From contig CAWEPZ010000009.1 in NCBI GenBank assembly GCA_963811105.1, positions 128,001 to 192,000 on the forward strand: a stretch of DNA of 64,000 bases. Reading direction: 5' to 3'. Source of the DNA: Candidatus Bathyarchaeota archaeon. GTDB taxonomy: Archaea; Thermoproteota; Bathyarchaeia; Bathyarchaeales; Bathycorpusculaceae. This document shows, piece by piece, positions 9,221-25,201 of the stretch (position 1 is its first letter; each line of letters begins with the position of its first letter). The notes under the pieces were generated by a model that did no database searches, had not been told where the DNA came from, and saw nothing but the letters and a program-made list of their open reading frames with translations. The position numbers were made by a program, and so were the translations under genes.

Positions 9221-9233
9221 TTAGGCGTTTGCT

Positions 9234-9391
9234 ATGAATACGTAGTTGACGATTGCTATTATTGTTGTGGTACTTTGGGCGATTGGTTCTTTGCTTTGCC
9301 AGGCGTAGGCTCACTAATACACATCTTATTAGTTATTGCCGTAGTCTTAATGGTAGTTTGGCTGTCGATCGGCAAGAAACTTTGGAAATAA
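9234..9391 (+). pseudogene. Disrupted lmo0937-like small membrane protein
   Basis: TIAIIVVVLWAIG and GSLIHILLVIAVV lie in different frames; early TAG. Confidence 0.6.
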
Positions 9392-9497
9392 TCAACACCT
9401 TTTTTTTGTTAAACGAAATCCAAACTAGAAAATTATGATAAGTAAAGCAGCTTGCTAACTTAGAAGTTTATTTAGAAGGGAGAACCTTTGATTAAAA

Positions 9498-9745
9498 TGA
9501 ATTACGTAAAATGCTCCCCAGACGTTATAATTGCCGCGTTAAACGAGGAGAAAGTGTCAGCCCTACGTTGACGGAGATTTCGCGGGAAATTAGTCCTAAC
9601 AAAGTTTTTTAGTTGATGGTCACAGTCACAACTGGACGGTAGAAATTGCCAAAGATTGGGGCGCACATTCTATTTCAAGAAGGCAAAGGGAAAGGCGATA
9701 CTATAACGAAAGCATTTGGATACATGGTTCCGATGTAGATTACAA
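9498..9745 (+). pseudogene. Glycosyltransferase family 2 N-terminal remnant
   Basis: Fragments VIIAALNEE, VDGHS, TVEIAKDWGA, QEGKGKGD across frames; truncated just before tRNA-Phe. Confidence 0.7.
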
Positions 9746-9835
9746 CTTAATATTCCTACGAAAACGTAAATAAACATCTGCAACATTGACTGTATAGCCT
9801 CTCCTTAAAAAATGGCCGAAAACATCCAAATAAGT

Positions 9836-9912
9836 GCCGAGGTAGCTCAGCCTGGGAGAGCGCTCGGCTGAAGACCGAGTCGTCGCATGTTCAAACCCTG
9901 CCCTCGGCACCA
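9836..9912 (+). tRNA. tRNA-Phe(GAA), CCA encoded; integration target
   Basis: GCCGAGG/CCTCGGC acceptor, CTCGG-CTGAAGA-CCGAG anticodon arm; one T-stem mismatch. Confidence 0.92.
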
Positions 9913-10176
9913 CCATTAACATAAAACAATCAACTTGATATGAAGTACATTAGCGTAAAGCGGGCTAAATTTAATTAATTTTGTCTATAAACAATTTTTC
10001 GAGCCTAGGCATTCCCGAAGAGCGTTTAAATCTTACAGCAAGATTCGAAAAAGTCATAAAATTATTAAAAAGACACTGTCTGAGAGAAAAACTGTTATTT
10101 CACTGAAGAAAAGCTTAAAGACGAAAGGGACGTAGTCTAACTTGAAGCAACCGCCGATCATCAAGGTGAACATGAA

Positions 10177-11058
10177 CTGCCTATTTTAGACCTAAACAAC
10201 GTTAGTTCGGGTTATAATAAGCAAACGATCTTACATGATATTAACTTCAAACTACAAGAACCCTCAATTTACGTTGTTTTGGGGCCAAACGGCGCGGGCA
10301 AGACAACTTTGTTTAGAACAATCGCCGTCATTCTGGAGCCATTTAGCGGCAATATTCTTCTTGATGGCCAAAACATAACTTACTCACGTGAAGCTAGAAA
10401 GAAACTGAGTTTCTTCTCGCAGAATGCCATGCCTGAAGAAATGACAGTATATCAGGCACTCAAGTTCTATTCCAATATGGAGGGCGGAGATCCAGACAAG
10501 GCAATTGAACTGCTCGATCTTAGTCAACTAAAAGACAAAAAGTACTCCGATCTTTCTCAAGGGCAGAAAAAAAGAGCGGCCCTCGCAAAAGTGTTTCTGT
10601 GTGAAAGAGACCTCTACCTATTAGATGAACCTACAGCAAATTTGGACCCAGTAGTTTCAAAAGAAATTCGCGATATTATATTAAAGCTGAGCAAGGACAA
10701 AATGATTCTGTACTCTTCCCATAATCTTTATGAAGCAACCGACATCGGCACTTATTTGATCCTAATCAAGAATGGTTCAGTTTCAACGTTTGATAGAATC
10801 TCAAACATCAAGCCCAAGAATTACCGCGTCGGCATCAAAACACAAACGGACATAACAAAAATTGTCGATGCCAAACGTGAGGGCGATTACTACGTCTTGA
10901 GTGTGTCCACCCCCGAGGAGGCTGGCCTTGCTCTCAAAAAAATCGTTGAAACAGGCATCTTAGTTACTGAAATGCGCCAACTAGACAATCCTTTACAAGA
11001 GCTCTTTGAGACATCCGGCGCCGAAAAAGCTACCGAAGGGTCAAAAAATGAAAAGTAA
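10177..11058 (+). CDS. ABC-2 type exporter ATP-binding protein
   Basis: GPNGAGKTT, LSQGQ, LLDEPT; N-terminus PILDLNNVSSGY upstream of track start; probable CTG start. Confidence 0.9.
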   Translation: MPILDLNNVSSGYNKQTILHDINFKLQEPSIYVVLGPNGAGKTTLFRTIAVILEPFSGNILLDGQNITYSREARKKLSFFSQNAMPEEMTVYQALKFYSNMEGGDPDKAIELLDLSQLKDKKYSDLSQGQKKRAALAKVFLCERDLYLLDEPTANLDPVVSKEIRDIILKLSKDKMILYSSHNLYEATDIGTYLILIKNGSVSTFDRISNIKPKNYRVGIKTQTDITKIVDAKREGDYYVLSVSTPEEAGLALKKIVETGILVTEMRQLDNPLQELFETSGAEKATEGSKNEK

Positions 11059-11731
11059 GTTTTTGGTTTTTGCTAAGCGTAGCCTCAACCTAAGTAAAAT
11101 ATATGCGGGAATGGGGCTGGTTCTTGCATCCTTTGGAATTTTTGTGATATACGCCCTATCTCTTCTTGCAGGAAGTTCACGTGCGGCTGTCTTTTTCCTA
11201 CCCGTGTCGTTTATGTCTCTTGGGCTTCTAATTTTTACTATTCCAGTCACATTACTCTATGTATATGACAAAAACAACGGTGTCTTGGAGTATTTGCTTT
11301 CGCTTGGTTGGAACCAAAGCGATATCTTCAAGCAATACCTGAAAGCCGCTCTCTTCCTTGCACTGATCCTCTTAACAGGGGAAGGTGCCGCAATTTTGAT
11401 CGCAGGAGCTATTTCGGGGTCAATTAGTGTTTTTCTCTTGGATTTGTTGATGCTGTTTCTTACTGCGTTTTTGGGTTTATCTGTGGTTTCTTTGGTTACT
11501 GTGGGTATGATGGCTTTTAGTTCGTTACAGAAGCAACGGGTAGGTGCTAACACTCCGCTTGGCTTTGGGCTTGGCGTTGTGTTTATCATTCCAACCTTTT
11601 ATCTTTCTTTTATTGGATTTATTCCAGAGCTCATAGTTGTCCTTTCCCTTTGTATCTTGGCAGGCGGCCTGTCAGCCGGGTTGCTCTTGCTATCGGGCAG
11701 GCTAATTAGAAGGGAAAAAATGTTGCCGTAA
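11048..11731 (+). CDS. ABC exporter permease
   Basis: About 6 TM segments, YDKNNGVLEYLLS; overlaps the ATPase stop. Confidence 0.75.
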   Translation: MKSKFLVFAKRSLNLSKIYAGMGLVLASFGIFVIYALSLLAGSSRAAVFFLPVSFMSLGLLIFTIPVTLLYVYDKNNGVLEYLLSLGWNQSDIFKQYLKAALFLALILLTGEGAAILIAGAISGSISVFLLDLLMLFLTAFLGLSVVSLVTVGMMAFSSLQKQRVGANTPLGFGLGVVFIIPTFYLSFIGFIPELIVVLSLCILAGGLSAGLLLLSGRLIRREKMLP

Positions 11732-12010
11732 ACGATACGGCTCTGAACCTATACAAGTCTGAGGCCCAGTGGATACACATTGGGCATGAAATTTAAGAAG
11801 AAGGACTTAAGCTACCACAAGTTATAAGGTCCCATACTTATCTGCGGCTAAGTCCATAGAGACCTATACCATTTTTGGTTAGAATCCAATTAATTTTGAG
11901 CCAAAACAACTTCGCTTATTTGAGGTTTAAGCGTTGTAATTCTGGAAAGGGATGAGACGAGAAAAGTTATTAGGAGAATTCTGCAAATATTCTTTTGGTG
12001 TTTTTGGTCC

Positions 12011-12391
12011 ATGAAAAAGAATTTTGAGTCAATTGATGAATACATCGCTTCTTTTCCCAAGAAAGTTCAAACTATTTTAGAGCAAATAAGGAAAGCCGTC
12101 AAGGACGCGGCTCCCAAAGCCGAAGAAGCAATTAGTTATAACATGCCAGCGTTCAAACTGAACGGCAATTTGGTCTGGTTTGGAGCATTCAAGAATCACG
12201 TAGGTTTCTATCCACGTGAGTCGGCCATCGAGGAATTCAAGGAAAAACTGTCCAGCTATGAAGTAAGCAAAGTCCAGGGCACTGTCAAATTTCCTTTGGA
12301 TAAGCCAATGCCATTAGATTTGATAAAGGAAATAGTAAAGTTCAGAGTAAAAGAAAACCTGAAAGAAACAAGCGGTTTCAGATACTCATGA
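12011..12391 (+). CDS. DUF1801/YdhG family protein
   Basis: SIDEYIASFP, ISYNMPAF, HVGFYP. Confidence 0.88.
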   Translation: MKKNFESIDEYIASFPKKVQTILEQIRKAVKDAAPKAEEAISYNMPAFKLNGNLVWFGAFKNHVGFYPRESAIEEFKEKLSSYEVSKVQGTVKFPLDKPMPLDLIKEIVKFRVKENLKETSGFRYS

Positions 12392-12401
12392 GTTGCTCAT
12401 G

Positions 12402-12575
12402 CTAAGCCTTCTTCTCGAAGTTGACTTTCACCTCTCCCAAAACCACGTTTTTGGTTATGTCGACGCCGTCTATGTAAACGTGCAAATCAGCCACTTTGCA
12501 GTTCAACCATAAGCCAAGCGCTTTGACTTGAGCCGAAGTTCGGTGGGTTGACGTTAAGATTATTTCTTCTGCCAT
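12402..12575 (-). CDS. Small hypothetical protein (57 aa)
   Basis: Manual translation MAEEIILTSTHRTSAQVKALGLWLNCKVADLHVYIDGVDITKNVVLGEVKVNFEKKA. Confidence 0.4.
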   Translation of the reverse strand: MAEEIILTSTHRTSAQVKALGLWLNCKVADLHVYIDGVDITKNVVLGEVKVNFEKKA

Positions 12576-12661
12576 AAGCGGTCACGTGAATTATTTTGAA
12601 GGCACACCATGCCAAACGATTTATAGAAATTCAGCCAGCTCCTCTATAAGCACTCAATCAA

Positions 12662-13072
12662 ATGAATGAAGAGACCCTCATGTCAACAAATTCTAAAAAT
12701 CTAAGCACAAACATGAACGCAGCTATTGCTTTACTCTACGTATTTACTGCCGCAATTATCGCAGCGTTCATAACAACCATAATTAGCGTTCCAGCAAATG
12801 TTCAGATTCTTGCAGTTGGCTTCATCACGCCACTTGTCGTTCTTAGCTTAGTTTTTATTTTCTATTGCAGGAAAGGGAAAGCTTGGAGTTTTGCTGGAGC
12901 TACTATCCTTGGAGCGATTGGTGTTCTCCTTCGAGTAATTATTAGTACTCAACCCGATATTGAGGTAGGCGGCGGACTTCCAGTTGGTGTAACTGCCCTC
13001 TACATAGTTCTTGGAGCTCTTGTCTCACTCAAAAGCTATGAATCATGGCTAGAACTAAAAGCAGGCATTTAG
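12662..13072 (+). CDS. Hypothetical membrane protein (4 TM)
   Basis: Four hydrophobic segments. Confidence 0.65.
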   Translation: MNEETLMSTNSKNLSTNMNAAIALLYVFTAAIIAAFITTIISVPANVQILAVGFITPLVVLSLVFIFYCRKGKAWSFAGATILGAIGVLLRVIISTQPDIEVGGGLPVGVTALYIVLGALVSLKSYESWLELKAGI

Positions 13073-13157
13073 CGCGCCGAGCTAAAATCACCATAACTTA
13101 TTGTGATTACGGCAAATGAACTAACTATTTAATTGGAACATGCCACTTGGAGTAAAT

Positions 13158-13853
13158 ATGCCAACTGACGAACAAGGGAAAAGGAAAGCCTACAAGGGCG
13201 TAGCAATGGAGGGTGTTATAGCCAAGCAGTATAACAGGATTCAAAAGCACATGATTGAAGAATACAAATTATGGGCTAAACTTGTAAGCGACAAAACATC
13301 TATTGGCGGAAACGTGCTTGAAGTTGCTCCCGGTCCAGGATACTTGTCAGTTGAACTCGCAAAGCTTGGCAACCATAACATAACTGGATTAGACATAAGC
13401 AAAACCTTTGTGGAAATCGCACAAAACAAGGCTACGGAAGCAGGAGTAAAGGTTGATTTTCGTCAGGGTGATGCTGCTGAAATGCCTTTTCTGGATGGAA
13501 CATTTGATTTTGTGGTCTGTACTTCTGCTTTCAAAAACTTTCCAGACCCGATTAAGGTCTTAGACGAAATATTTAGGATTTTAAAGGCAAACGGTAAGGC
13601 GCTGATTATCGATATGAATAAGGATGTTCCCAAAAACAAACTCAACGACTTTGTTGATCGCATGAAATTGAACTTGTTTGACTCTTATTTTACCAAGCAA
13701 ACTTTCAAAGGGTTAGCGAAATCGGCTTACACTCGAACCGAAATCCAAGACATCGTCAACAAATCACGATTTACGCAATGTCAGATTACAGATGAAGACA
13801 TCGGCTTTGAGGTATGGCTGGAAAAGGCAAAGGAAACAGAAAGATTAAGCTAA
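13158..13853 (+). CDS. Class I SAM-dependent methyltransferase
   Basis: VLEVAPGPG, GLDIS, GDAAEMPF, FDFVV. Confidence 0.88.
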   Translation: MPTDEQGKRKAYKGVAMEGVIAKQYNRIQKHMIEEYKLWAKLVSDKTSIGGNVLEVAPGPGYLSVELAKLGNHNITGLDISKTFVEIAQNKATEAGVKVDFRQGDAAEMPFLDGTFDFVVCTSAFKNFPDPIKVLDEIFRILKANGKALIIDMNKDVPKNKLNDFVDRMKLNLFDSYFTKQTFKGLAKSAYTRTEIQDIVNKSRFTQCQITDEDIGFEVWLEKAKETERLS

Positions 13854-14007
13854 TTTCCTCGAGCAGGATTCGCTTAATAGTTTAATTGCATTATTTCAGT
13901 TAATGATTACAGGCCAAAAATTTCTTGAAGTAACTTGTTTTGCCAATTCCCAATTCGACGAGCCGCTATTTTCTTTAAACGAGCAGACATATAGTTTATT
14001 GATTGAC

Positions 14008-15081
14008 ATGAACCTGGAAGATGTCGCCAAGCTTCGGTTGATTAATCATCAGATTGCTTATTCAGCTACCAAAGAACCCGGCGAAGTTGTCGCTTCGCTT
14101 GGCGCCATGCAGGCTCAAGATTATCAATCGGCACTCTGGGCTATTGGTCTTCGCGCCAAACAAGTAACTCTACCAGAGGTGGAATCAGCGATAAGTAACA
14201 GGGCAATTGTCCGGATTTGGCTGTTAAGAGGCACTTTGCATTTCGTAACAGCCCCTGATGTTCATTGGATGCTAAAGCTGTTAGGACCGCAAATTATTGC
14301 AGCCAGTGCTGGACGCCACCGTCAGCTGAAATTAGATGAGGCAACTTTTATGCGGGCTGAGGAACTATTTGTTGAAGCCCTCCAAAATGGTCAGTTGACT
14401 CGAGATGAAATGTTTAAGGTATTGGAAAAAGGAGGTATTTCTCATGAAGGTCAACGGGGCTACCATATTCTTTGGCGAGCAGCTCTGAAAGGGTTGATTT
14501 GTTTTGGTCCACAAAAGGGCAAAGAGCAGACTTTTGCTTTACTCAAACAATATGTACCAAAAGGCAAGAGTGTGAAACAGGCCGAAGCGTTGAGTGAACT
14601 CGCGCATCGTTACTTTTCAAGCCGAGGTCCAGCGTTGCTTGAGGATTTCGCTTGGTGGTCAGGGTTGAAGCTATCTGATGCGAAGATAGCTTTGGAAACA
14701 GCATCTTCTCGGCTCAGGTCAGAAACAATCGAAGGCAAAAGATATTGGATGCCCCACAGTACGCCCGAAAATGCAAAAGAGTTGGCAACAGCGTTTCTTT
14801 TGCCAGCTTTCGATGAGTATATCCTTGGTTACAGCGACCGAACCGCTACACTTGAACAACCTTATTTTAAGAAGGCAGTATCCAACAACGGCATCTTCTA
14901 CCCCACAATTAGCATTAATGGAAAAGTAGTGGGAACATGGAAGCGTACGTTCAAGAAAAGCAACATAGTCATTATGCTCAGCCCGTTTAAGACACTGACC
15001 CCAACACAAAGAAGTTCAATTGCTTTAGCAGCAAAACATTACAGCAGATTTATGGAAATGTCCGTATCAATCACAAAATAA
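14008..15081 (+). CDS. AlkZ/YcaQ (HTH_42) family DNA glycosylase
   Basis: MQAQD (QxQ), LRGTLH, DFAWWSGL, LLPAFDEY, GKVVGTW. Confidence 0.85.
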   Translation: MNLEDVAKLRLINHQIAYSATKEPGEVVASLGAMQAQDYQSALWAIGLRAKQVTLPEVESAISNRAIVRIWLLRGTLHFVTAPDVHWMLKLLGPQIIAASAGRHRQLKLDEATFMRAEELFVEALQNGQLTRDEMFKVLEKGGISHEGQRGYHILWRAALKGLICFGPQKGKEQTFALLKQYVPKGKSVKQAEALSELAHRYFSSRGPALLEDFAWWSGLKLSDAKIALETASSRLRSETIEGKRYWMPHSTPENAKELATAFLLPAFDEYILGYSDRTATLEQPYFKKAVSNNGIFYPTISINGKVVGTWKRTFKKSNIVIMLSPFKTLTPTQRSSIALAAKHYSRFMEMSVSITK

Positions 15082-15142
15082 GGTCACTCGGCACTTTTTA
15101 GTTCTATCAAGCAGCGGATCGTTGAGGCCTGCGCTGGTTGAT

Positions 15143-15730
15143 TTAGTTTATTCTAGCATAGCTCAATTCAACAGCACCCGAATTGAACGTCTTTGTCTCG
15201 ATTAGGTTTAGTCTCTGCCTAAAATCAAGATCTTTTAGCAAAAGTTTTCCTTTGCCTAAAATCACAGGATGAACAACAATCTGGTACTCGTCAATCAATC
15301 CCAGTTTCGCAAACGTCTGTGCTATCGTTGCACCACCCACAACGATCATGTTTTTCCCTGGTTGCTGCTTTAGTCTTTTTATTTCTTCAGCTATGTTACT
15401 ATTAATCAGCATGGAATTTTTCCATTCCACGTTGTTTAGAGTACTTGAGATTACAATTTTTTTGGTTTCATCCGCATATCGTGAAAACTTTTTGTCGTTT
15501 TCGGTGCTCTGAGGATTTTTTGCCGCTGCGGGCCAGTATTTCTCCCATATTTGATAAGTTCTTCGTCCAAGGATAGCAGTGTCCGCAAGTTTGAGGTTTT
15601 TCCACATTTCCTCATGGAGGTCTTTCCACATGGTTTCGTCATTGAAGGGCGGAAGATAATCCATTTCATCGTTTGGTCCAGTTGAAAAGCCGTCAAGTGT
15701 CATTTGCATTGACAAGATTATTTTTCTCAA
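15143..15730 (-). CDS. Dihydrofolate reductase/RibD C-terminal family
   Basis: MTLDG, LGRRTY, GGAT, LIDEY, PVILGKG. Confidence 0.88.
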   Translation of the reverse strand: MRKIILSMQMTLDGFSTGPNDEMDYLPPFNDETMWKDLHEEMWKNLKLADTAILGRRTYQIWEKYWPAAAKNPQSTENDKKFSRYADETKKIVISSTLNNVEWKNSMLINSNIAEEIKRLKQQPGKNMIVVGGATIAQTFAKLGLIDEYQIVVHPVILGKGKLLLKDLDFRQRLNLIETKTFNSGAVELSYARIN

Positions 15731-15872
15731 AAAATCACCAAATTAAACCAATCCAATAGCCTATAAAAATGTTTTTAGTTTGCCGTGGAAGCTTAAAAAA
15801 GGCATCCGCTAAACGCTTTCCGTTCTTCCTAAAAGATGAATAGATACTAATACGATTGTTAGCAATGCGGGC

Positions 15873-16115
15873 TCAATTAGTTTTTGACTTTTCTTTTTTT
15901 GCATCTGCCAATATCTTCATCTTGGCAAGCTCAGGTTTTTGTATGTATAAAATTATCGCGTTTGCGTGACCGCGTCCCAAGCCAAAGTCAGTCTTGAGCC
16001 AAGCAAGTAACTCACCATATTTTGTTAGCCCCTTCTCTTTTGCCAATGCTTGGAAATATTCAGGATCCTTGCCAGTCTTAGCCTTGATGTTGTCAATGTA
16101 TGCTTTATATGTCAT
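15873..16115 (-). CDS. DUF4287 family protein
   Basis: YIDNIKAKTGK, WLKTDFGLGRGHANA. Confidence 0.85.
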   Translation of the reverse strand: MTYKAYIDNIKAKTGKDPEYFQALAKEKGLTKYGELLAWLKTDFGLGRGHANAIILYIQKPELAKMKILADAKKEKSKTN

Positions 16116-16377
16116 AGTTTCTCAACTTGCTAATACCATTTTTCCTTTCCTAAAAGAGTTTGTCATTTAACGTGTAATTATGATATAGGCGAGCAAAGCA
16201 CTAAATAGTTTTTGGTGTGTATACATTGTAGTCCGGATCTTTCATTTATTTGGTTTCGCTTCCTTTCAGGTTCAAATTTTTAAAAGGTCCGTCCTCTGAT
16301 AATTTTTATTGGTAAATTTGGGGTTAGGATACCCAGCGCCCTAGAGAAAAAAAATCAGAAATCAAGTGTTAAGAAAA

Positions 16378-16482
16378 ATTTTGAAAACTTTTGGGTATGG
16401 GGACTTGTACCTTCAAACTTGGCCAAAATTTGCAAAGATTAGTCCTATTCAATGAGGTTGAGTTAGGGACTCACACCGTGTT
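16378..16482. repeat. Conserved right arm, copy A, 5' part (split by IS)
   Basis: Aligns with 23248-23351 (CCTATTCAATGAG...GGGACTCA-ACCGTG). Confidence 0.85.
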
Positions 16483-16571
16483 CAGACTGTGTAAAAACTT
16501 AGGATTAGAAAGAATTATACTTGACCTTCAAACTCGTCTGTAATTGATAGTTGCTTTCGTCTTGCCTTTTT

Positions 16572-18035
16572 TCATGCTTTTACTAAAGCCATTAACACGC
16601 CAACCCCAAGAATGTTGATAGCCCTTCGCATGTTGTAAGCCAACATCGTAAACCCAACCTCTCCTTTAACCTTCCTAAGCCCCTTCAAGAGCAAATAACC
16701 CTGATTGAAAGCCCGCTTCATGGATCCAAAAGGATGCTCCACTATCTCCCTTCTACGGTGCAACTTCTCTTTTCCCTCAGAAGTTCCCAACCGTGATCTG
16801 AGCCGTTCAACAGCGTCCTCGAATTCCCCCCTAAAAATAATCCTGCCACGCTTATTCCTAGTGCACTTGCTCCTAAAACCACACACCTCGCAACAAAGCG
16901 TCTTGTAAACTCTGCCTCGCTCCGGTTTACCCTTATGAAGGCACTTCCAAAACCCCAGATCCTCACCAGCAGGACAAACATAAACGTCCCTAACCGAGTC
17001 ATACACGAACCTGTCAGTATAGAATCCAGGCTCCGGCACCCCAAAACGCTTATGCGGATTCACAACTGCAGGAATGGGCATAAACACAGTTATGCCTTCA
17101 GCCTCACAATCTTTCAAATCCTTCATAACATAGAACCCTTTGTCGGTCGTTACCTCCAATCTTTCAACTCCAAGAGTCTGCTTTGCTGCTTTAGCATCGT
17201 TGACTAATTGATGGTGATCAGTTGAATTGTTTATCACGTCATAATCCACAATGAGATGCTTCTTGGCATCCACAGACGTTTGGACATTATAGCAAACATC
17301 CAGCCTTTGGCTGTCGACTCGCATCAAACGGCTATCTGGATCCACAAGCGAAACCTCCTTCTGCCCTGTCGCCTTCATCTGGTTCTGAGCATGCTCGTAC
17401 TGCTGCTTTTTCTCTTCAAGCCGGCCTATCCTTTCTTTAAGGTCATTGACTTTGAGGCTATCATTTTTGCCTGAGTCGGCTTTGTCATTCTCATCCATCA
17501 GCCTGAGGTATTCTGCTATCTTCTCCTCGGTCCGTTTAAGTCTCAACGCAACTGTGTTCTCGTTGAAATTGTTGCTCTTCGAGTTTACAGCCTTGAATTT
17601 GCTGCCATCTATGGCAATGAGCTGAGCACCATAGAGGTCGAGTGATCGGCATAGGTAGACGAATTCTTTGAATACAGGCTTTATACAGTCGACGTTGTCT
17701 TTTCTGAAGTCGGCAATGGTTTTGTGGTCTGGAGCGAGCTTCTTCATTAACCACATTACCTCGACGTTGCGGTAGCATTCTCTTTCAAATTTTCTGCTGG
17801 ACCGGATCTGGTTCAGATAGCCATATGTGTAGAGTTTTAGAAGGTCTGAAGGATTGTAAGATGGTCTTCCTGTGTCAGCAAGAATTGAGTGTTTGAAGCC
17901 GAGCTTCTCTAGATTGAGGCTGTCTATGAAGGCGTCAATGAACCTGACTGGGTTTTCTGCATCAACGTATTTGTCGAGGGTGTCTGGGAAGAGTATGGTT
18001 TGGTCTCGGTGTGTTCCGTCAACGTGTTCGCTCAT
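16572..18035 (-). CDS. IS1182-family DDE transposase
   Basis: GRPSYNP, SSRKFE, PDHKTIADFR, IDGSK, DKGF, VEHPFG. Confidence 0.93.
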   Translation of the reverse strand: MSEHVDGTHRDQTILFPDTLDKYVDAENPVRFIDAFIDSLNLEKLGFKHSILADTGRPSYNPSDLLKLYTYGYLNQIRSSRKFERECYRNVEVMWLMKKLAPDHKTIADFRKDNVDCIKPVFKEFVYLCRSLDLYGAQLIAIDGSKFKAVNSKSNNFNENTVALRLKRTEEKIAEYLRLMDENDKADSGKNDSLKVNDLKERIGRLEEKKQQYEHAQNQMKATGQKEVSLVDPDSRLMRVDSQRLDVCYNVQTSVDAKKHLIVDYDVINNSTDHHQLVNDAKAAKQTLGVERLEVTTDKGFYVMKDLKDCEAEGITVFMPIPAVVNPHKRFGVPEPGFYTDRFVYDSVRDVYVCPAGEDLGFWKCLHKGKPERGRVYKTLCCEVCGFRSKCTRNKRGRIIFRGEFEDAVERLRSRLGTSEGKEKLHRRREIVEHPFGSMKRAFNQGYLLLKGLRKVKGEVGFTMLAYNMRRAINILGVGVLMALVKA

Positions 18036-18217
18036 TGCTGTTCGTCTCCTTCGGCAGGTTCATCTACTATGACTATGTAGACTGTTTTGCCGAGGTATTC
18101 TTTTGGGCAGGTGACTTTGGCGCCTGTTCCGTAGGCTGTTACTTTTCTTTTTAGGAAGCCTATTATTCCGGTGACTTTGATTTCTGTTGCTGGCTCAAAA
18201 ACTATTTTCTTAGGCAT
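18032..18217 (-). CDS. DUF2080-like transposon-associated small protein
   Basis: KVTAYGTGAKVTCPKEYLGKTVYIVI; inside the IS, overlapping the transposase start. Confidence 0.8.
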   Translation of the reverse strand: MPKKIVFEPATEIKVTGIIGFLKRKVTAYGTGAKVTCPKEYLGKTVYIVIVDEPAEGDEQQ

Positions 18218-18298
18218 ATATAGCTAATATCACTCAATTATACATATAAAACTATCATTCTATCGAAAACCTAACATAGTTTTCACACAGTCTGTGTT

Positions 18299-18462
18299 GG
18301 GGTTAAGTCCGGTCCGACCTAACCTTTTTTTGGATTTTGTTGTAACGAGGGTTTAAACGACGGTGTCAAGCTAGCCCTCGGCACCAAATAACCTTAATTT
18401 GAGGTTATTTTGCAATATTGGGGATAAATTATAACTTTATGGCTGTTCTCCAAGGAGGGGTA
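18299..18462. repeat. Junction A: rest of right arm, tRNA-Phe 3' copy (18374-18386), left arm
   Basis: Closely matches 23352-23516. Confidence 0.9.
18386..18411 (+). terminator. Palindrome plus T-run directly after the att copy (possible terminator or binding site)
   Basis: AAATAACCT-n7-AGGTTATTT; variant at 23441-23465. Confidence 0.45.
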
Positions 18463-18535
18463 ACAAACAAACGGCAGATGGGAATCCACGCGTGCGAAGA
18501 TCCAAAAAAAGATTTGAGCGCGCAGTTGTTTACGC

Positions 18536-18970
18536 TCAATTTTTCTTACGGTAATTGACTGCTACTACTGCGCTGACGGCAATTACAGTTGCGAGCAAGG
18601 CGATTCCTAAGATAGTTAATGTATTGTCCGGTTGGGGTGCAGGAGCGATAAGTGGCGCGTTTTCATCGTTTAGGCTATCTTGAGTAGTGTAGAGTGTGGC
18701 GTTGTCATCGGGTGAAGCTGTACTATTGTCTTGGGCTCTATCTAAGGTTGAATTGTCGTCTGTTGCTGCGGTACTGTCGTCTTGAGCAGTATACAGGGTT
18801 GGATTTTCACTAATTAATCCACCGCCATTGTCGGTTGACGTTGAATCGGGAATTCGAGTTGGATCGATTTGAGCACTTGCACTCGAAATTGCAGTTGCAG
18901 ATAACAAGAACAATGTTAATACCGCAACGGTTAAGAATTTATTTTTCTTGATTTGTGATTTATTTTCCAT
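18536..18970 (-). CDS. Secreted, C-terminally anchored Asp/Thr-rich repeat protein
   Basis: Signal peptide, 17-aa repeats TLxxAQDxSTAxxDDN, C-terminal TM plus RKKN. Confidence 0.7.
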   Translation of the reverse strand: MENKSQIKKNKFLTVAVLTLFLLSATAISSASAQIDPTRIPDSTSTDNGGGLISENPTLYTAQDDSTAATDDNSTLDRAQDNSTASPDDNATLYTTQDSLNDENAPLIAPAPQPDNTLTILGIALLATVIAVSAVVAVNYRKKN

Positions 18971-19022
18971 TTTTAACCGCCTATTCATCTAAGTGGAAGA
19001 ATGTTGAATTTAGCACCATGCA

Positions 19023-19073
19023 TTAGAACACAACATCATAATTTTTGGAACGGGGTGTTCTAAACAATAGAAC
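19023..19073. promoter_or_regulatory. Putative operator between divergent genes
   Basis: TRGAAC at 19024, 19046 and 19068 (22-bp period); TTGGAAC-n5-GTTCTAA palindrome. Confidence 0.5.
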
Positions 19074-19189
19074 GGAGAATTGCTCATTCATCGTATCTTT
19101 TGACTTCCGAAAATGGACATTCGTCAACAAAAGTGAAAAATATTAAATACTCAATCAAAACATAAAAAAAGTCAAAGAGAAAAGTCAAA

Positions 19190-19885
19190 ATGGATTATTA
19201 CAGAAAGCTCGCAATAATTGCGGGAGTATTATTTATCATTTATACAAGTGGAGATATCCTAAGCTTCTTATTTACGGGACCTGTGTCGGCTCCGGATTAT
19301 CTTGTTAGTGTTTCTGCAAATAGAGGTCTAGTAGGAACAGGAGCCCTTCTTTTGTTCAACGGTGGTCTTTGCGCTTCTGGTATTGCAATTGCGCTATATC
19401 CAGTGCTAAAAAAATTCAATGCAGGGTTAGCTCTTGGAGCTGTTGGTTTCAGGATTTCTGAGGGAGTATTACGTTTTGTTACTGTGTCTGCCCTACTATT
19501 ACTAATAATATTAAGCCAGCAATTTGTACAAGCTGGAGCTCCTGATTCATCGTTTTTCCAAACCTTAGGCGTATTGCTAGTAGCAGGTTTTGAAAGCGGT
19601 TTTGGGTCGATACTGGCTTTTTCCATAGGTGCTCTGCTATATTATATCATATTTTATCGAACAAAACTAGTTCCTCGATGGATATCGGTCTGGGGTCTTG
19701 CTGCTGCCATATTGACCATATTATCATTCGTGTTAGCTACGGTCGGCCTCATCGCTCCTGGCAGTACGGAAGAAACCGTTTTGGCTCTTCCAATGCTCCC
19801 GCAAGAAATGGTTCTTGCGGTATGGCTGATAGCTAAAGGATTCAATCCATCTGTAATTGCTTCCAAGTCTCCTCAAGTGGAATAG
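19190..19885 (+). CDS. DUF4386 family membrane protein
   Basis: LYPVLKK, LVPRWISVWG, EMVLAVWLIAKGF. Confidence 0.85.
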   Translation: MDYYRKLAIIAGVLFIIYTSGDILSFLFTGPVSAPDYLVSVSANRGLVGTGALLLFNGGLCASGIAIALYPVLKKFNAGLALGAVGFRISEGVLRFVTVSALLLLIILSQQFVQAGAPDSSFFQTLGVLLVAGFESGFGSILAFSIGALLYYIIFYRTKLVPRWISVWGLAAAILTILSFVLATVGLIAPGSTEETVLALPMLPQEMVLAVWLIAKGFNPSVIASKSPQVE

Positions 19886-19997
19886 TTGAATAACCATGGA
19901 AACCCCAGCGTACCAGGAGTCATCTTGTTTTTATGATGAGGGGCGCACGCGCTCGGCGACAAGTGTTAAATAAAGGAAAAAGACATAAAGGCAAGTC

Positions 19998-20411
19998 ATG
20001 GGCGCCAAAACTTCAAAGCCAAATTATGCTAGCTTAATTACCAAAATTCTGATAGTTCTGGTCATACTCAACATTGCTGGGGACGTTTTAGCTGCGGCGT
20101 TTTTTCTGTGGGACCCTTCCTTAGGAGAGTTGTCAGTATACGGCGGTTTGATTGCAAGTTTTGCGGGAAAAAATGGTGCCGTTATGATAACAAGCGCCAT
20201 TCTTTTAGGCTACGCGGTGGTTTACGCTGTTTCTGTCTTTGGGTTGTTAAGTAAATTAAAGTGGGCACCGCCTCTGGTTATTGCCGTTTCGGTAGTGAAT
20301 CGCGCGCTTGCTCTGGGGGTTATTTTTGAGCCAAACGTTGCTTGGCTAATCTGGTCAGCGTGGAAACTCGTCATAATAGCTTTAGCTGGGTATCTTTGGC
20401 GCAAAATGTAA
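19998..20411 (+). CDS. Hypothetical membrane protein
   Basis: Four hydrophobic segments. Confidence 0.65.
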   Translation: MGAKTSKPNYASLITKILIVLVILNIAGDVLAAAFFLWDPSLGELSVYGGLIASFAGKNGAVMITSAILLGYAVVYAVSVFGLLSKLKWAPPLVIAVSVVNRALALGVIFEPNVAWLIWSAWKLVIIALAGYLWRKM

Positions 20412-20489
20412 TTTAACTTTTGGAGGCGCTCCCTGTTTGGGGAGAGTATCTAAACCGCATCTTAGTTGACCATTTCACCAATCATTCGA

Positions 20490-21428
20490 CTAAGCGGGCA
20501 AGCTATGCTGCAAAGTTATGACGACGTTTCCTTTTTTGTGCCCCGTTTCTACATAGCGGTGGGCTTCGACAATCTGCTCCAAAGGATACGTCCTATCGAT
20601 GACTGCTTTTAGTTTGCCTGCTTCAATTAGACCGCTAAGTGTTGACAAATCATTTGGCTCCATGCCCCCGTTCCCCCAAGTGGAGAGAAAAACGCCGTAT
20701 TCTGTCAGCGATCCCTTCGCCTTTGAACGCGAAATTTTGCCTACTGCGTCAAAAACCAAGTCATACCTCTGACCATTTTTGGCGAAATCTTCTTTGGCGT
20801 AATCAATCACAACATCCGCCCCTAAAGATTTGACTAACTCCAAATTAGCGGCGCTGCATACGCCGGTAACTTGTGCCCCGTAATTTTTAGCAAGCTGAAC
20901 GGCGTAAGTGCCAACGCTTCCCGACGCGCCATAAACAAGAATTTTCTGCCCGTTCTTGACGTTTGCTTTCCTAAGAAAAGCCAGCGCAGTCATACCGCCA
21001 ATGGGAACAGCAGCAGCTTCCTCAAAAGTCAAATTTGCCGGTTTCTTTGCGACCTCGATAACTACTCTTCCCACCACGTCTGTATCTGGAAGACAAATAT
21101 ATTCGGCATATCCCCCACCAAAACCGGTTGCAGCAAAGACTTCATCACCAACCCTAAATTTTTCTACACCTTTGCCAATTGTCTCGACTACCCCAGACAC
21201 TTCCATCCCAAGGACTTTATTTTTTGGCCCTGTTAAACCTAAAGCAAACCGGGCAGGGAGCCAAAAATGGGCTGGCACTTTGAAGCCTCGCATTCTTATG
21301 TCTCCTGCAGTCACGGTTGTGGCATTTATTTTCACCAGTACTTCATTGTCTTTTGGAACTGGTTTTTCTATTTCCTTGAGGTGAAGAACCTCTGGGGAGC
21401 CATATTTTTCGTATATTGCTGCTTTCAT
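20490..21428 (-). CDS. NAD(P)-dependent MDR-family oxidoreductase (quinone reductase-like)
   Basis: [29 protein letters not shown]. Confidence 0.9.
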
Positions 21429-21483
21429 TTCGATTACCCTTTATTGAAAGTTGATTTTTAACTTTAAAAGAAGAAGGAGAAGG

Positions 21484-21885
21484 CTAACCTTCCTGTTTAG
21501 GCCACTTCCATGCATACCAAACAATTAGTGCAATAAACACAACTTCTAAAATCTCATAAAATACATAATAAGCCCAAGTCTCTCCTGGTGCAAGCAGTGC
21601 AGGGACCAAAACACCAGCATAGACTATACCCGCAATGATGTTTACCCGGCGATTCACTTTAGCCGGCAATGCTAGAGACAAGAAAATCATAAAAATCGGA
21701 ATAGCCATTAATATTGCAGCTCCAACCAAAAATACTTGATTAAGCGCTTTTTCTCCTGATAGTACTTTCTCTACCATATCTTGCCTATAGGATCCGAAAA
21801 CATCGTTATATAAATAAAGAAACATTAAAGCTACCCATAATGTTGAAAGCTTTATCTTCACATTTATCTTCACATCTTCTAACAT
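21484..21885 (-). CDS. DUF6326 family membrane protein
   Basis: KLSTLWVALMFLYLYND, IVWYAWKWP. Confidence 0.8.
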   Translation of the reverse strand: MLEDVKINVKIKLSTLWVALMFLYLYNDVFGSYRQDMVEKVLSGEKALNQVFLVGAAILMAIPIFMIFLSLALPAKVNRRVNIIAGIVYAGVLVPALLAPGETWAYYVFYEILEVVFIALIVWYAWKWPKQEG

Positions 21886-22093
21886 TGACTTATCTCTCTC
21901 CCCACATTGACAGTTAGGGGGGTATCTGTCGATTTGGATTTAAGACTTGTGTTTGAATACACTAAGAAAGGAAAGAAACTCTTCCCAGAAAATGTCAAGT
22001 AACTGCTTTTACTTACGCGTGTGAAAAAATTTCTGATTTACTTTTGAGGCAAAATACTATTATCCTTTAAAGTAATTATTCCTACATATCAAA

Positions 22094-23074
22094 ATGAAAG
22101 CGATTGTCCACACAAAATACGGTTCTTCTGATGTTCTTCGAACCAAAGAGGTAGAGAGACCTACTCCCAAGGATAATGAAGTACTGATTAAGGTTCAGGC
22201 GGTATCCGTTAATAGATCTGACTGGGAGGGATTGACAGGCTCACCTTTGTATGCCCGCTTTGGGGGTCTTCTTAAACCACGGTACCAGATACTCGGATCG
22301 GATATAGCCGGGCGAGTTGAGATGGTTGGCAGAAACGTCTCGCGATTTCAAACAGGGGATGAGGTCTTCGGAGATACCTCGTTTCGTATGGGTGGTTTTG
22401 CAGAGTATGCCTGCGCTCTTGAAGAAACCTTAGCGCTGAAACCAACCAGTATGACATTCGAGGAGGCAGCGACAATCCCACAAGGAGCTGTGATCGCTTT
22501 ACAGGGGATTCGAGATAAAGGACAAATCCAGCCAGGTCAAAAGGTTTTAATTAATGGCGCTGGCGGCGGCGCAGGTATGTTTGCAGTGCAGCTTGCTAAG
22601 TTATACGGGGCTGAGGTGACTGGAGTGGATAACACCGACAAGCTGGATTTTATGCATTCGCTTGGTGCTGACCATGTCATTGATTACATTAAAGAAGACT
22701 TTACCAAAAATGGACAGCAGTATGATCTGATACTTGATGTAGTAGCTAATCGTTCGGTCTTCGCCTATAAGCGGGCGCTAAGGCTCAATGGAAGCTATTT
22801 TGCTGTCGGAGGTTCTGCAGCTAGACTTTTCCAGATTTTGCTCCTGGGACCATGGATTAGAAGAACATCAGGCAAGAAAATACGGATCCTGGCGGTTCAA
22901 CCAAATCTAAAAGATTTGGTTTATATAACGGAGCTTTGTGAAGCCGGCAAAATCATCCCATTTATTGATAAACGGTATTCGTTAAATGAGGTTCCTGAAG
23001 CGCTTCAGTATCTTGGTGAAGGACGTGTCAAAGGAAAAGTTGTCATAATTGTTAAGCTTAACCTTGATCCGTAG
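22094..23074 (+). CDS. NAD(P)-dependent MDR-family oxidoreductase
   Basis: GSDIAG, NGAGGGAG, GRVKGKVVI. Confidence 0.9.
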   Translation: MKAIVHTKYGSSDVLRTKEVERPTPKDNEVLIKVQAVSVNRSDWEGLTGSPLYARFGGLLKPRYQILGSDIAGRVEMVGRNVSRFQTGDEVFGDTSFRMGGFAEYACALEETLALKPTSMTFEEAATIPQGAVIALQGIRDKGQIQPGQKVLINGAGGGAGMFAVQLAKLYGAEVTGVDNTDKLDFMHSLGADHVIDYIKEDFTKNGQQYDLILDVVANRSVFAYKRALRLNGSYFAVGGSAARLFQILLLGPWIRRTSGKKIRILAVQPNLKDLVYITELCEAGKIIPFIDKRYSLNEVPEALQYLGEGRVKGKVVIIVKLNLDP

Positions 23075-23247
23075 CTTTGTTGCCTTAGTCTTTATCGAAG
23101 TCCTTTCAACTTTTGGCAATCCAAGCAACTCCTATGTCTACCTTCTGATCGACACAGTAATGAACATTCCAAGGATCCTTAGCTCCTGGAATAGTTATTG
23201 GCTAACTATACACAAGGGCGTACGGACAAACCTAATTTTGGTCTGCG

Positions 23248-23516
23248 TTTTGAACCAGTTCGGGCATGGTGACGGGCAGCTTCAAACCTTGGTCAAAACT
23301 TAGGAAAATAGCCCTATTCAATGAGTCTCACCCCTGGGACTCATACCGTGTAGGGGGTAAGCCGGTACGACCTGCCCATGTTTTTTAGATAATGTAGTAA
23401 CGACGGCTTAAACGACGGTGTCAATCTAGCCCTCGGCACCAAATACCCTTAATTTGAGGTTATTTTGCAATATTGGGCATAAATTACAACATTATGTGCG
23501 CTCTGCAAGGAGGGTA
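23248..23516. repeat. Junction B: intact right arm, tRNA-Phe 3' copy (23429-23441), left arm
   Basis: Homologous to junctions A and C. Confidence 0.9.
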
Positions 23517-23659
23517 ATGAGATATGAAAGAAGGAACGTTTCTGCTCATAGATTTTGTCGGAAAAGCAAAATAATGGTTGAAGCAAACAATATTGTTTGA
23601 CGATTGGAGGTAGCAGGTTGATTTCGGGGACAAGGGGCCTCCAAATATTTTTCTAAATG

Positions 23660-23929
23660 TTAGAGCATTTTTGAAAAGTCATCGTACACTTTGCTTCTAT
23701 GGCCGACAAAAAGAATGACTACTTGGTTTTTGTTTTGGTCTATTTCATAGATGACGCGGTAGTCGCCTACTCGTAGACTCCAGAAATCTGATTGTTTTAG
23801 GGGTTTTCCTATTTTGTCGGGGTTTTCACGTAGTTGTTTTGCGCTATCGATTATTCTGGTTCGGATGTGTTCTTCAGTTTTTTGGAGTTCTTTTGCTGCT
23901 TTAGGATGCAGAAGTACTTTGAAAGTCAC
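23660..23929 (-). CDS. RelE/ParE family type II toxin
   Basis: HPKAAKEL, GKPLK, LRVGDYRVIY, VGHRSKVY. Confidence 0.9.
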   Translation of the reverse strand: MTFKVLLHPKAAKELQKTEEHIRTRIIDSAKQLRENPDKIGKPLKQSDFWSLRVGDYRVIYEIDQNKNQVVILFVGHRSKVYDDFSKML

Positions 23930-24147
23930 TCTAGTTCCTCTATAGGAATGAGGGATTCTGGGTGTTGTTTTGCTTCTTCGCTTCGTTCCATGAGTGTGTT
24001 AAAGAAGTTGCATGTTTTTTCGCGTTCTTGGTAGTACGTGATGATTGATTTTATGGCGTCGCTTCGGTTTTTGAAGCGGCCTTCTGCTACCCATCCATCT
24101 ATTTCCTCGAGGGTTTTTTGTGGAAGACGTAGTTGTACTTGAGCCAA
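23926..24147 (-). CDS. Ribbon-helix-helix antitoxin
   Basis: VQLRLP..LEEID..GRFKNRSDAI; 4-bp overlap with toxin. Confidence 0.85.
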   Translation of the reverse strand: MAQVQLRLPQKTLEEIDGWVAEGRFKNRSDAIKSIITYYQEREKTCNFFNTLMERSEEAKQHPESLIPIEELE

Positions 24148-24157
24148 ATATGTCGCC

Positions 24158-24175
24158 GTAAACAGTACTGTTTAC
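24158..24175. promoter_or_regulatory. Putative TA autoregulatory operator
   Basis: Perfect 18-bp palindrome GTAAACAGTACTGTTTAC 10 bp upstream of the antitoxin start. Confidence 0.7.
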
Positions 24176-24435
24176 AACTCACTTAAACGTTTCCTAAACA
24201 ACCATCCGAATCAGTCTTCTTAGCCCTTGAGATGCCTTCAACTGAGGTTCCATAGGAACTTTCAAGGATAACACAGAAACAAGAAATGGAGACATGGAGT
24301 TTTCTAACTATATTAGTCTTAGCTATAGTTTTGTCAGTGATTGCTATTGCGACAGTTGTAGTTATCTATAAAAAATTGAAACTCATGGAAGAGACCACTT
24401 TTTGCCTAATAATTAAGAAAACTATGATCTAAAAT

Positions 24436-24576
24436 TAGGAAATAGCCTTATTCGGTAAGTCTTAGCATAGGGACTCATACCGTGTAGAGGATAAGCCCAG
24501 TATGACCTGCCCCTGTTTTTTAGATAATGTTGTAACGACGGCTTAAACGACGGTTTCAAGCTAGCCCTCGGCGCCA
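24436..24576. repeat. Junction C: right arm plus terminal att copy
   Basis: GGGACTCATACCGTG...AACGACGGCTTAAACGACGG...CTAGCCCTCGGCGCCA; no left arm follows. Confidence 0.9.
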
Positions 24577-24647
24577 TAACTTCTTCTGTTTCTGAGACGT
24601 TCACATTTATTTCTTCAATTTCACAAATCTGATAGAGAGGAATATGA

Positions 24648-25201
24648 ATGGAACTTAATTAGTGCATTAAAGGTGGAAGAAGCATTAGAGCTTATACGGC
24701 TGAACCAGTTTCGAAAGAACAAATTAACGCTACCTTGGAAGCAGGCATATGGGTGCCCAAAGCGATGAATAGACAGCCGTGGAAGTTCATAATCATAGAA
24801 GACAAGAAACTACTCAAGCTCATATCTGAGAAACTAAGATTTTAGTCAAGCAAATGATGCCTCGGTTAGCTAAAAATTTTTGCACTGAAGCGGATATTGT
24901 CTGTTACAACGCACCCGTGATCATATTAGTTTGCACAGAGAAGGATGAACAATGGATAACTTAGACGTCATCGACAGTGTTCTTGCTGCACAAAACATGT
25001 TCTTAAAGGTTTATGAGTTGGGGCTTGGAACATGCTAAATGGGCTTAGTTAACTTCCTAAAACCCAAACCTGACATTCTCAAAAAAAATTGGCGTTCCGG
25101 AGAATTATCAAATGATGGTACCTTTCATTTTAGGTCACCCAAAAACCAAACAAGGCACGGGAAAAAGGAAGAAACCAGAAATCAAAGAATGGCTGACGTA
25201 A
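24648..25201 (+). pseudogene. Nitroreductase family pseudogene
   Basis: RSIRAY, MNRQPWKF, YNAPVII, AAQNMFL, LGLGTC with in-frame stops and frameshifts. Confidence 0.85.

Follow-up and report, generated by a model that had tools for sequence, protein, structure and literature searches.

Tandem integrase-less gene units at the 3' end of the tRNA-Phe gene in a Bathyarchaeia genome

Introduction

In integrons, cassettes that carry no recombinase gene form arrays at one attachment site, and IS1111-attC elements are insertion sequences (IS) that insert specifically into a recombination site. Heterobivalent tyrosine integrases act on attP sites of the lambda type, genomic islands target tRNA genes, and integrative mobile elements exploiting Xer (IMEXs) use the host Xer recombinase at dif. 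IMEX arrays are cited in PMC6563490. The parts of PMC8371274 and PMC6563490 that deal with archaeal mobile genetic elements (MGEs) describe the reuse of one tRNA site, the formation of arrays and the loss of some integrases. Cis-mobilizable elements (CIMEs), as presented for the Streptococcus ICESt1/ICESt3 model in the CIME sections of PMC5704250, are integrase-less units that keep attL and attR and stack in tandem, and the portion of PMC3146451 on Dehalococcoides describes ssrA-specific genomic islands that integrate site-specifically at a single small RNA gene. Here we analyze a tandem array of three integrase-less gene units behind the tRNA-Phe gene of a Candidatus Bathyarchaeota archaeon, contained in a 64,000-nt stretch of its genome (the window; assembly GCA_963811105.1, contig CAWEPZ010000009.1).

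Bathyarchaeia are abundant, uncultured archaea of sediment and peat, and little is known about how their accessory genes move. The window corresponds to C9:128001-192000 of the source assembly (G000; 3.49 Mb, 15 contigs), and coordinates given without a contig are window positions. Other G numbers denote genomes of relatives and L numbers denote relatives' loci. The relatives are metagenome-assembled genomes (MAGs) named Bathyarchaeota or Bathyarchaeia, recovered from bog, fen, peat and soil. We compared the array with a genus panel of 101 genomes, G000 counted, in 73 of which tRNA-Phe was found (G000 again counted), and with a metagenome set of 70 loci.

Results

Three units lie between tRNA-Phe and its original flank

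The 3' 13 bases of the only tRNA-Phe gene of G000 (core 0, 9900-9912) have further direct copies at 18374 and 23429, both exact, and at 24564, with one mismatch. When up to two mismatches were allowed, four matches were found against 0.46 expected, and none of 100 shuffles reached four. The cores divide a 14.7-kb array (9913-24576) into units 1, 2 and 3 of 8474, 5055 and 1135 bp, each laid out as core, P' arm (R or R2), cargo, P arm (L) and core, with two to eight genes on both strands (Table 1). The array sits between the 3' end of tRNA-Phe and the 71-nt spacer of a nitroreductase gene, beyond which G000 continues with DUF429, an amino-acid kinase gene, a hydantoinase-like gene and an ATP-grasp gene.

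Empty sites were sought in 20 relatives chosen for showing no arm match in the junction search. In six of these (L199, L205, L210, L211, L212 and L213) the nitroreductase starts 66-83 nt behind tRNA-Phe with DUF429 further on; in L194 it starts 264 nt behind the tRNA, and in L209 DUF429 starts 143 nt behind it. The complete empty order is seen in L199 (G073): tRNA, 68 nt, nitroreductase, DUF429, amino-acid kinase, hydantoinase-like and ATP-grasp; L194 and L209 come close to it. Since the start of the flank after core C resembles the flank that follows the tRNA in the empty-site genomes, the 14.7-kb array is inserted exactly at the tRNA 3' end.

The junction was matched in 41 of the 101 genus genomes, G000 counted, and the arrays vary in length: from tRNA-Phe to the outermost L-core junction there are about 1.2 kb in G067, 7.4 kb in G063, 14.7 kb in G000, about 20 kb in G091 and about 22 kb in G092, with different cargo in each of the five. 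Relatives' units carry heliorhodopsin, Kdp ATPase subunits, a CAP12/Pycsar-type TIR domain and a beta-lactamase-fold protein, and further GNATs, SnoaL, PQQ-repeat proteins and a CheB/CheR fusion with a kinase.

Where the same cargo occurs in different species, it is far more alike than its surroundings. Unit 3 is 93-95% identical at the DNA level over 688-1003 bp in five other genomes, and segments of unit 2 are 92-96% identical in G010, G043 and G063, whereas the right flank at the same loci is 65-72% identical. Between species, cargo proteins share 92-99% identity, the range found in amino acids for ParE and RHH in five other genomes, while flank proteins share 51-72%. The complete unit of R, toxin-antitoxin pair and L was found again in G047 among other neighbours. 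Parts of units 2 and 3 were also recovered, at 90% likeness or more, on contigs from four unrelated metagenomes; in these four runs the interior of unit 1 and the stretch beyond 24.9 kb are almost uncovered at 90% likeness, which is not taken as evidence. In one metagenome contig the end of the tRNA is continued by the opening bases of R, and in another the tRNA T-arm precedes the core at 18374. Together, the anatomy of the array, its exact insertion, the empty sites, the variation between relatives and the contrast in identity show that the units are discrete, were inserted through site-specific recombination and moved between species recently.

Table 1. Features of the tRNA-Phe array and its flank in the window.
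Feature	Position	Strand	Basis or remark
tRNA-Phe(GAA), attachment gene	9836..9912	+	ARAGORN; Rfam tRNA 56 bits
R2 arm, 160-nt right (P') arm heading unit 1	9913..10072	+	79-94% identical in 14 relatives' loci, several overlapping one another
Unit 1 cargo	10279..16115	both	Pfam scan, ORF list
Unit 1: ABC ATPase	10279-11058		Pfam/ORF list
Unit 1: membrane protein, ABC partner	11006-11731		Pfam/ORF list
Unit 1: DUF1801	12011-12391		Pfam/ORF list
Unit 1: membrane protein	12662-13072		Pfam/ORF list
Unit 1: SAM methyltransferase	13140-13853		Pfam/ORF list
Unit 1: AlkZ-like glycosylase	13903-15081		Pfam/ORF list
Unit 1: RibD_C/DHFR-like	15143-15730	-	Pfam/ORF list
Unit 1: DUF4287	15873-16115	-	Pfam/ORF list
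Unit 1 L (P) arm, distal half, severed by IS	16379..16482	+	72% identical to 23248-23351; nhmmer match C9:144410-144482
IS within unit 1 L arm, 1813 bp	16483..18295	-	Ends, flanks, Pfam
Unit 1 L arm, proximal half, ~78 nt touching core A	18296..18373	+	
Core A, exact 13-base copy	18374..18386	+	
R arm (P') heading unit 2	18387..18460	+	Perfect 8-bp hairpin at start
Unit 2 cargo	18536..23074	both	Pfam
Unit 2: Ser/Thr-rich anchored protein	18536-18988	-	
Unit 2: DUF4386	19190-19885		Pfam
Unit 2: membrane protein	19998-20411		
Unit 2: Zn-ADH-type oxidoreductase	20490-21428	-	Pfam
Unit 2: DUF6326	21484-21885	-	Pfam
Unit 2: second Zn-ADH-type oxidoreductase	22094-23074		Pfam
Unit 2 L arm, uninterrupted	23248..23428	+	nhmmer model positions 2-167; 18-copy L alignment
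Core B, exact	23429..23441	+	
R arm heading unit 3	23442..23516	+	
Unit 3 cargo, toxin-antitoxin pair	23660..24147	-	Pfam
Unit 3: ParE toxin	23660-23929	-	Pfam
Unit 3: RHH antitoxin	23926-24147	-	Pfam
Unit 3 L arm	24419..24563	+	
Core C, one mismatch; outer attR core	24564..24576	+	
Original downstream flank (B'): 71-nt spacer and frameshifted nitroreductase gene (24648-25195)	24577..25195	+	tblastn, two frames

The GC content of the array (0.41-0.43) differs too little from that of its flanks (0.38-0.41) to be informative. The frameshift of the nitroreductase gene lies near 24830-24842, and a 207-aa gene that precedes the nitroreductase in some relatives is absent from the window. In G061, the two halves of tRNA-Phe match 30 nt apart (L072 15915-16021, C13), which suggests that the gene carries an intron there.

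Arms L, R and R2

An 80-nt L family ends at each of the internal cores (68%, 100% and 91% identity). A 134-nt repeat running through arm, core and right arm (18326-18459 against 23381-23514) is 88% identical, and a 58-nt repeat (23306-23363 against 24440-24497) is 81% identical. The 75-nt R arm stands 3' of cores A and B, and none follows core C. In nine relatives' loci (L059, L061, L063, L064, L069, L071, L072, L073 and L074) R lies directly 3' of an intact tRNA-Phe, and it also lies 3' of internal L-core junctions; R is thus the P' arm, brought by the element, which makes L the P arm.

Cores are followed by sequence of four kinds: R, R2, a T-rich arm taking the place of the final two core bases, and a 45-nt R3, which in other genomes is the spacer between tRNA-Phe and a convergent integrase gene. 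One of the relatives' copies of R2 follows tRNA-Leu (G078, L122 12338-12496). In G085 (L075 2280-2841, C33), R is followed ~180 nt on by an R2-like segment, from which it appears that two right arms can stand in series.

The initial annotation of this locus, made by a model from the DNA letters, had recorded the 13-mer copies in direct orientation and the three unit lengths, which motif count and coordinates bear out, and a ~75-bp right arm after the two internal copies but not the last, which the repeats recover. Its further observation of a ~140-190 bp arm before each copy is correct in that all copies share L; at junction A, only ~78 nt of it touch the core, 18190-18295 being the end of the IS. 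It missed the conserved R2 arm that follows the real tRNA at 9913-10072, and its cargo list leaves out the IS with its transposase and DUF2080.

In an alignment of 18 diverse L copies, mean column identity was 71%, and columns without variation are concentrated in the ~45 nt nearest the core. There, a directly repeated, nearly invariant 8-mer is joined by a fixed decamer abutting the core. We take the 8-mer repeat and the decamer as candidate recombinase-binding sites. In one L arm of G078 (L070 5487-5590, C6) a 12-nt unit containing the repeated 8-mer occurs in at least five tandem copies. The consensus fold of the 18 arms was negligible (RNAalifold -4.19 kcal/mol, covariation term +0.7, 1 of 16 pairs compensatory), and a search of 8000-26000 against Rfam returned two tRNAs only, the arms matching no family, so that a structured RNA was ruled out and we read L as a putative protein-binding DNA site.

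The exact L-end pattern was found in a species-representative collection at 30 loci, all 30 in Bathyarchaeota/Bathyarchaeia MAGs (21 named MAG isolates). It had no match in a viral contig collection, which speaks against a viral origin, and this origin was rejected. In a class-wide sample of 300 relatives, with few candidates scored per genome, the arm was present in 3 of 48 genomes of the same family (two genera) and in none of 252 across the other 33 families. Within G000, an nhmmer profile of L gave 19 full or partial matches, and a profile built from one dispersed L copy gave seven. A dispersed miniature inverted-repeat transposable element (MITE) was discarded as an account of the arms: partial L copies are few, and the proximal L arm always adjoins a tRNA tail.

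An IS within the L arm of unit 1

The IS that severs the L arm of unit 1 encodes a DDE transposase (16572-18035) and a DUF2080 gene (18032-18217); its ends are terminal inverted repeats, and a 4-5-bp target duplication flanks it. Another G000 copy (C11:523111-524923) matches it at 100% identity and does not lie inside an L arm. At C11:566345-568156 of the same genome an IS occupies the same point of an L arm as in the window; the target duplications differ, and the two insertions therefore point to independent events. Four other genomes (L061, L062, L076 and L103) have a related transposase next to this part of the L arm, in either orientation, and a short IS derivative with the same end is found inside an L-like copy at C9:98.9-99.2 kb of G000.

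The same arm at other tRNA genes

L ends directly at the 13-nt tails of tRNA-Phe, two tRNA-Leu types and tRNA-Ser and at other tails of acceptor-like sequence, and in relatives and metagenomes it abuts at least six different acceptor-like 13-mers. Among the 70 metagenome loci, 25 had the Phe core, 11 a one-base variant and six a Leu core, with other types making up the rest. G000 itself holds an L arm with a Ser-type core 0.9 kb behind tRNA-Ser(GCT), ending in the last 13 bases of that tRNA, an L arm with a Leu-type core 2.4 kb behind tRNA-Leu(GAG), ending in the tail of that tRNA, and a degenerate L-core-R on C2. In G078, a unit bounded by R2 and L stands at tRNA-Leu with Leu-type cores at both ends, and its oxidoreductase is 87% identical to that of the window.

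In a composite region of G000 (L025, C11:558400-568340), far away from tRNA-Phe, a full L(IS)-core(Phe)-R junction is followed by cargo, a 13-mer equal to the tail of tRNA-Arg(GCG), tRNA-Ser(GCT) and L with the Ser core. Its methyltransferase is 91% identical in DNA to that of unit 1. Similar orphan Phe junctions occur in G001 and G087. The arrangement of L025 suggests that rearrangement moves array fragments.

Longer tRNA-tail duplicates were also seen in G000. Two duplicates of the 3' portion of tRNA-Gly(TCC), their match extending into the T-arm, lie at C9:218763 and 223285, 1.5 and 6 kb behind tRNA-Gly(GCC); tRNA-Pro(GGG) and tRNA-Thr(GGT) also have such duplicates behind them, and a duplicate of tRNA-Glu(TTC) is present elsewhere on C11. 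These duplicates, which have no L arm, are probably a second class of att scars.

Integrases

As the initial annotation had stated, the array contains no integrase, replication or transfer gene: a Pfam scan of 24 window ORFs found no such domain, none of the 18 matches to PF00589 in G000 lies within 9836-24576, and tblastn with five integrases of relatives returned nothing from that interval, not even a fragment. The nearest PF00589 copy in the window (48364-49215, minus strand) is decayed, with three stop codons, ~30% identity to tRNA-associated integrases and no tRNA nearby.

Relatives' arrays gave the same picture. PF00589 matched none of 144 representative ORFs from 21 array loci, and in a whole-genome scan of 20 array-bearing relatives no match fell within the mapped arrays, the nearest being 13 kb off. 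G067, which is 96% complete, has an array and no PF00589 match anywhere in its genome. An integrase lay within 2 kb in just 2 of the 70 metagenome loci, and a further 68 ORFs near L ends included three integrases, one of them adjacent.

Integrases of other contexts were found near tRNA genes. A Zn-ribbon tyrosine-integrase family is common beside tRNAs in this lineage. In G068, a 460-aa integrase with an N-terminal Zn ribbon lies right behind an L-core(Leu) junction. The tRNA-Leu of G063 has a 435-aa integrase behind it, then a 28-kb stretch of accessory genes and a truncated L arm, and after these another unit, whose end is L-core(Leu). Candidate helpers of this 435-460-aa tRNA-Leu type are encoded at L118:548-1930 and L120:5429-6736, both on the plus strand. 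Intact 375-391-aa integrases convergent with tRNA-Phe occur in 4 of the 20 arm-less relatives (PF00589 2.4e-16 for L200, 1191-2318, minus strand) and are likewise candidates. At tRNA-Leu(TAG) G000 has an integrase pseudogene, and integrase fragments lie behind its tRNA-Pro and tRNA-Ala. A helper resident in G000 was considered and rejected: the genome has no serine recombinase match and no close orthologue of the tRNA-Phe integrases, and its one SSV-type integrase, located elsewhere, has no L arm nearby.

Intact integrases of the same family also lie directly upstream of complete tRNAs in the same orientation, at Asp (G000:C14:12917-14400), Gly-CCC (C6:37253-38838) and Ile (C8:83178-84652) in G000 and at His in G096 (L083:17475-18777); no tRNA repeats of at least 14 nt were found within 60 kb of these four. 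No integrase lies beside tRNA-Phe in G000, and among the searched tRNA-Phe loci a fragment upstream was seen only in G067, so an integron-like layout with the integrase upstream of the tRNA was dismissed as a general rule.

In G087, ~17 kb separate an orphan L-core junction from a 386-aa integrase and a D5_N/DUF5906 primase-helicase gene (L082 9256-14558, C5). Taken with L065, which has primase-like and Rad51-like genes, they look like a nearby element of plasmid or virus origin.

Discussion

We consider it probable that the array consists of three tandem, att-flanked, non-autonomous units that were inserted site-specifically at the tRNA-Phe 3' end and are moved in trans by a tyrosine integrase. 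Even a unit that holds only a toxin-antitoxin pair retains both arms while lacking a recombinase, which makes an integrase acting in trans the most economical mechanism; catalysis by a tyrosine integrase, its action in trans and the present mobility of the units are what we infer. An excised unit would form a circle with an attP of L, 13-nt core and R, about 260 bp in all, in a lambda-type layout. Its excision and insertion would depend on an integrase supplied in trans, the units encoding no recombinase, and the likeliest source would be the tRNA-adjacent Zn-ribbon tyrosine-integrase family, carried on a resident or incoming element. New units could go in at the tRNA itself or at a core already in place, so that arrays would grow by accretion, and cargo could be reshuffled between units.

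Several observations weigh against this explanation. No circle was seen: at none of the 70 metagenome loci was a junction flanked on both sides by window cargo, and no contig proved to be circularly permuted. The integrase-bearing elements at tRNA-Phe have another left arm, ~21 nt of tRNA identity and other repeats, and appear to be a separate class, not evidently the helpers; in G000, which has no close orthologue of their integrases, the best matches are 38-45% identical. The region in G063, the sole link between an integrase and L, is composite with a deleted junction and may be regarded as a lead, no proof. Modules of unit 2 are differently ordered in G043 and lie within a unit of the R2 type in G063, and no internal junctions can be recognised; such mosaic cargo means that other processes also move genes here. 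The high identity of arms across species could partly reflect a recent common descent of whole segments and not selection on the arms. All genomes compared are MAGs, and at most 0.30 of the sampled words of the stretch were present in any sequencing run.

The main rival, which we judge unlikely, is that the units are ordinary integrase-bearing tRNA-Phe islands that have lost their integrases and now form an immobile, fossil array, the high identity having arisen by transfer of larger segments or by homologous replacement. Integrase loss after integration and tandem integration are known in archaea, according to the relevant parts of PMC8371274, and bacterial CIMEs are thought to originate in this way in the sections of PMC5704250 devoted to them. 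Integrase-bearing elements do occupy the same tRNA-Phe site in the 4 of 20 relatives described above, stubs of their 45-nt flank lie behind the last L-core junction in several arrays, and integrase fragments are many beside other tRNAs of G000. Decay of such elements fits poorly with an interval (9836-24576) devoid of any integrase fragment and with arms L, R and R2 that are unlike those of the integrase-bearing elements at the same site. Nor would one expect a fossil 1.1-kb toxin-antitoxin unit to be 93-95% identical in five other genomes with flanks at 65-72%, the conservation of L to be highest beside the core, or a single L arm to accompany many different, unrelated cargos and six or more types of core. 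Of the possibilities raised in the initial annotation, a dispersed MITE did not hold, L copies being few, and the arms are not decayed integrase genes; its proposal of non-autonomous units sharing one att architecture is supported, and the comparison with relatives that it had asked for reveals both empty sites and variation in the number, order and content of units.

We find it very improbable that the arms are mainly substrates for homologous recombination, swapping cargo with no dedicated site-specific recombinase involved in the present spread. Arms of 75-170 nt that are 80-95% identical between units and species would suit such exchange, as would the shuffling of cargo modules between units with different right arms; the Phe-type junctions away from tRNA-Phe in G000, G001 and G087 are what rearrangement between repeats would yield, and an exchange of modules between tandem elements through homologous recombination is proposed in the pertinent part of an archaeal recombinase review (PMC8371274). 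This account leaves unexplained the exact 13-nt tRNA tail at every junction, the match of the core to the local tRNA at the Leu and Ser sites, and an insertion that is accurate to the base at the tRNA 3' end. We give next to no credence to chimeric assembly or binning of strains caused by the repeated arms: all genomes are MAGs, G000 has an estimated contamination of 4.3% and the arms are indeed repeats, yet the same architecture recurs in the 41 genus genomes, the 30 loci of named MAG isolates and the 70 metagenome loci, arrays lie within contigs of hundreds of kb with syntenic flanks, and arm copies inside one array differ by 9-32% and so are not collapsed repeats.

Beyond the in-trans mobilisation of this array, we tentatively propose, as a possibility, a multi-site cassette economy in one Bathyarchaeia family. 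An arm of ~170 nt with exchangeable 13-nt tails would let in-trans integrases place recombinase-less cassettes behind at least six tRNA genes, with cassettes and modules crossing sites and species and the arm having its own site-specific IS parasite; it would be a functional counterpart of the integron on tRNA genes. If mobilisation in trans is true, transporters, oxidoreductases and toxin-antitoxin pairs spread between species without mobility genes, the rhodopsins and defence domains of relatives spread likewise, and surveys that start from integrases or virus genes would miss the cassettes. A conserved arm with exchangeable tRNA tails would also offer a simple system for separating arm recognition from core recognition by an archaeal integrase.

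Compared with described systems, the array resembles integrons in its recombinase-less cassettes lined up at one attachment site and in its accessory and toxin-antitoxin cargo, whose order and number vary between relatives, and its IS inserted into a recombination arm recalls the IS1111-attC elements. It has, however, no intI-like gene beside the attachment site, which is a tRNA 3' end; the arms lack an attC-like consensus fold; and the cassettes are multi-gene (two to eight), in both orientations, with no evident common promoter. The array is not an integron by any defining feature tested, and the integron-like capture platform suggested in the initial annotation is an analogy only, with no adjacent integrase, no attC-like folds and multi-gene cassettes in both orientations.

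In layout the units resemble a lambda-type attP. A short core identical to the tRNA 3' end has on one side a long P arm (~170 nt) with direct repeats and on the other a shorter P' arm (75-160 nt). The attL and attR sites repeat each other directly, the element restores the tRNA, and the far boundary of the array carries a direct repeat of the tRNA 3' end, as in tRNA-targeting tyrosine-integrase islands. Unlike lambda-type elements and tRNA islands, the units contain no integrase, and their arm-type sites are predicted from sequence; the identity with the tRNA is 13 nt, whereas that of other G000 islands reaches the T-arm and that of the integrase-bearing Phe elements is ~21 nt. A split integrase of the SSV type was not seen, no junction showing any integrase similarity and all frames across junctions holding stops. 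With IMEXs the array shares the lack of an integrase, the presumed use of a recombinase encoded elsewhere and tandem arrays at the site, but the target is a tRNA tail and not dif, and nothing ties the arms to XerA.

The reports on tandem archaeal MGEs concern integrase-defined proviruses and plasmids, and the portions of PMC8371274 and PMC6563490 on such elements contain no dedicated integrase-less cassette family with arms of its own. The Dehalococcoides islands, as treated in the part of PMC3146451 cited above, are bacterial and use the tmRNA gene. We found no description of such a cassette family in Bathyarchaeia or other archaea in the literature searched. What we could not find in print is the archaeal setting of integrase-less, att-flanked cassettes; the kind itself is known in bacteria, and the initial annotation went too far in not recognising a described element, as bacterial CIMEs and accretion match.

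CIMEs, to the extent that the CIME sections of PMC5704250 define them, share with these units the absence of integration and transfer genes, the retention of attL and attR, the position at the 3' end of a tRNA or other gene and tandem stacking by site-specific recombination; here, 13-nt tRNA-tail repeats stand at every boundary and the insertion is exact against the empty sites. The host here is archaeal, with no conjugative partner known. The arms are the cassettes' own, unlike those of integrase-bearing elements at the same tRNA, one arm is joined to several tRNA tails, and units down to 1.1 kb are spread across species. An IS, moreover, has entered the same point of the arm twice in G000, with a related transposase beside the arm in four others. 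The array thus matches the definition of a CIME as given in those sections, with an archaeal host and arms of its own.

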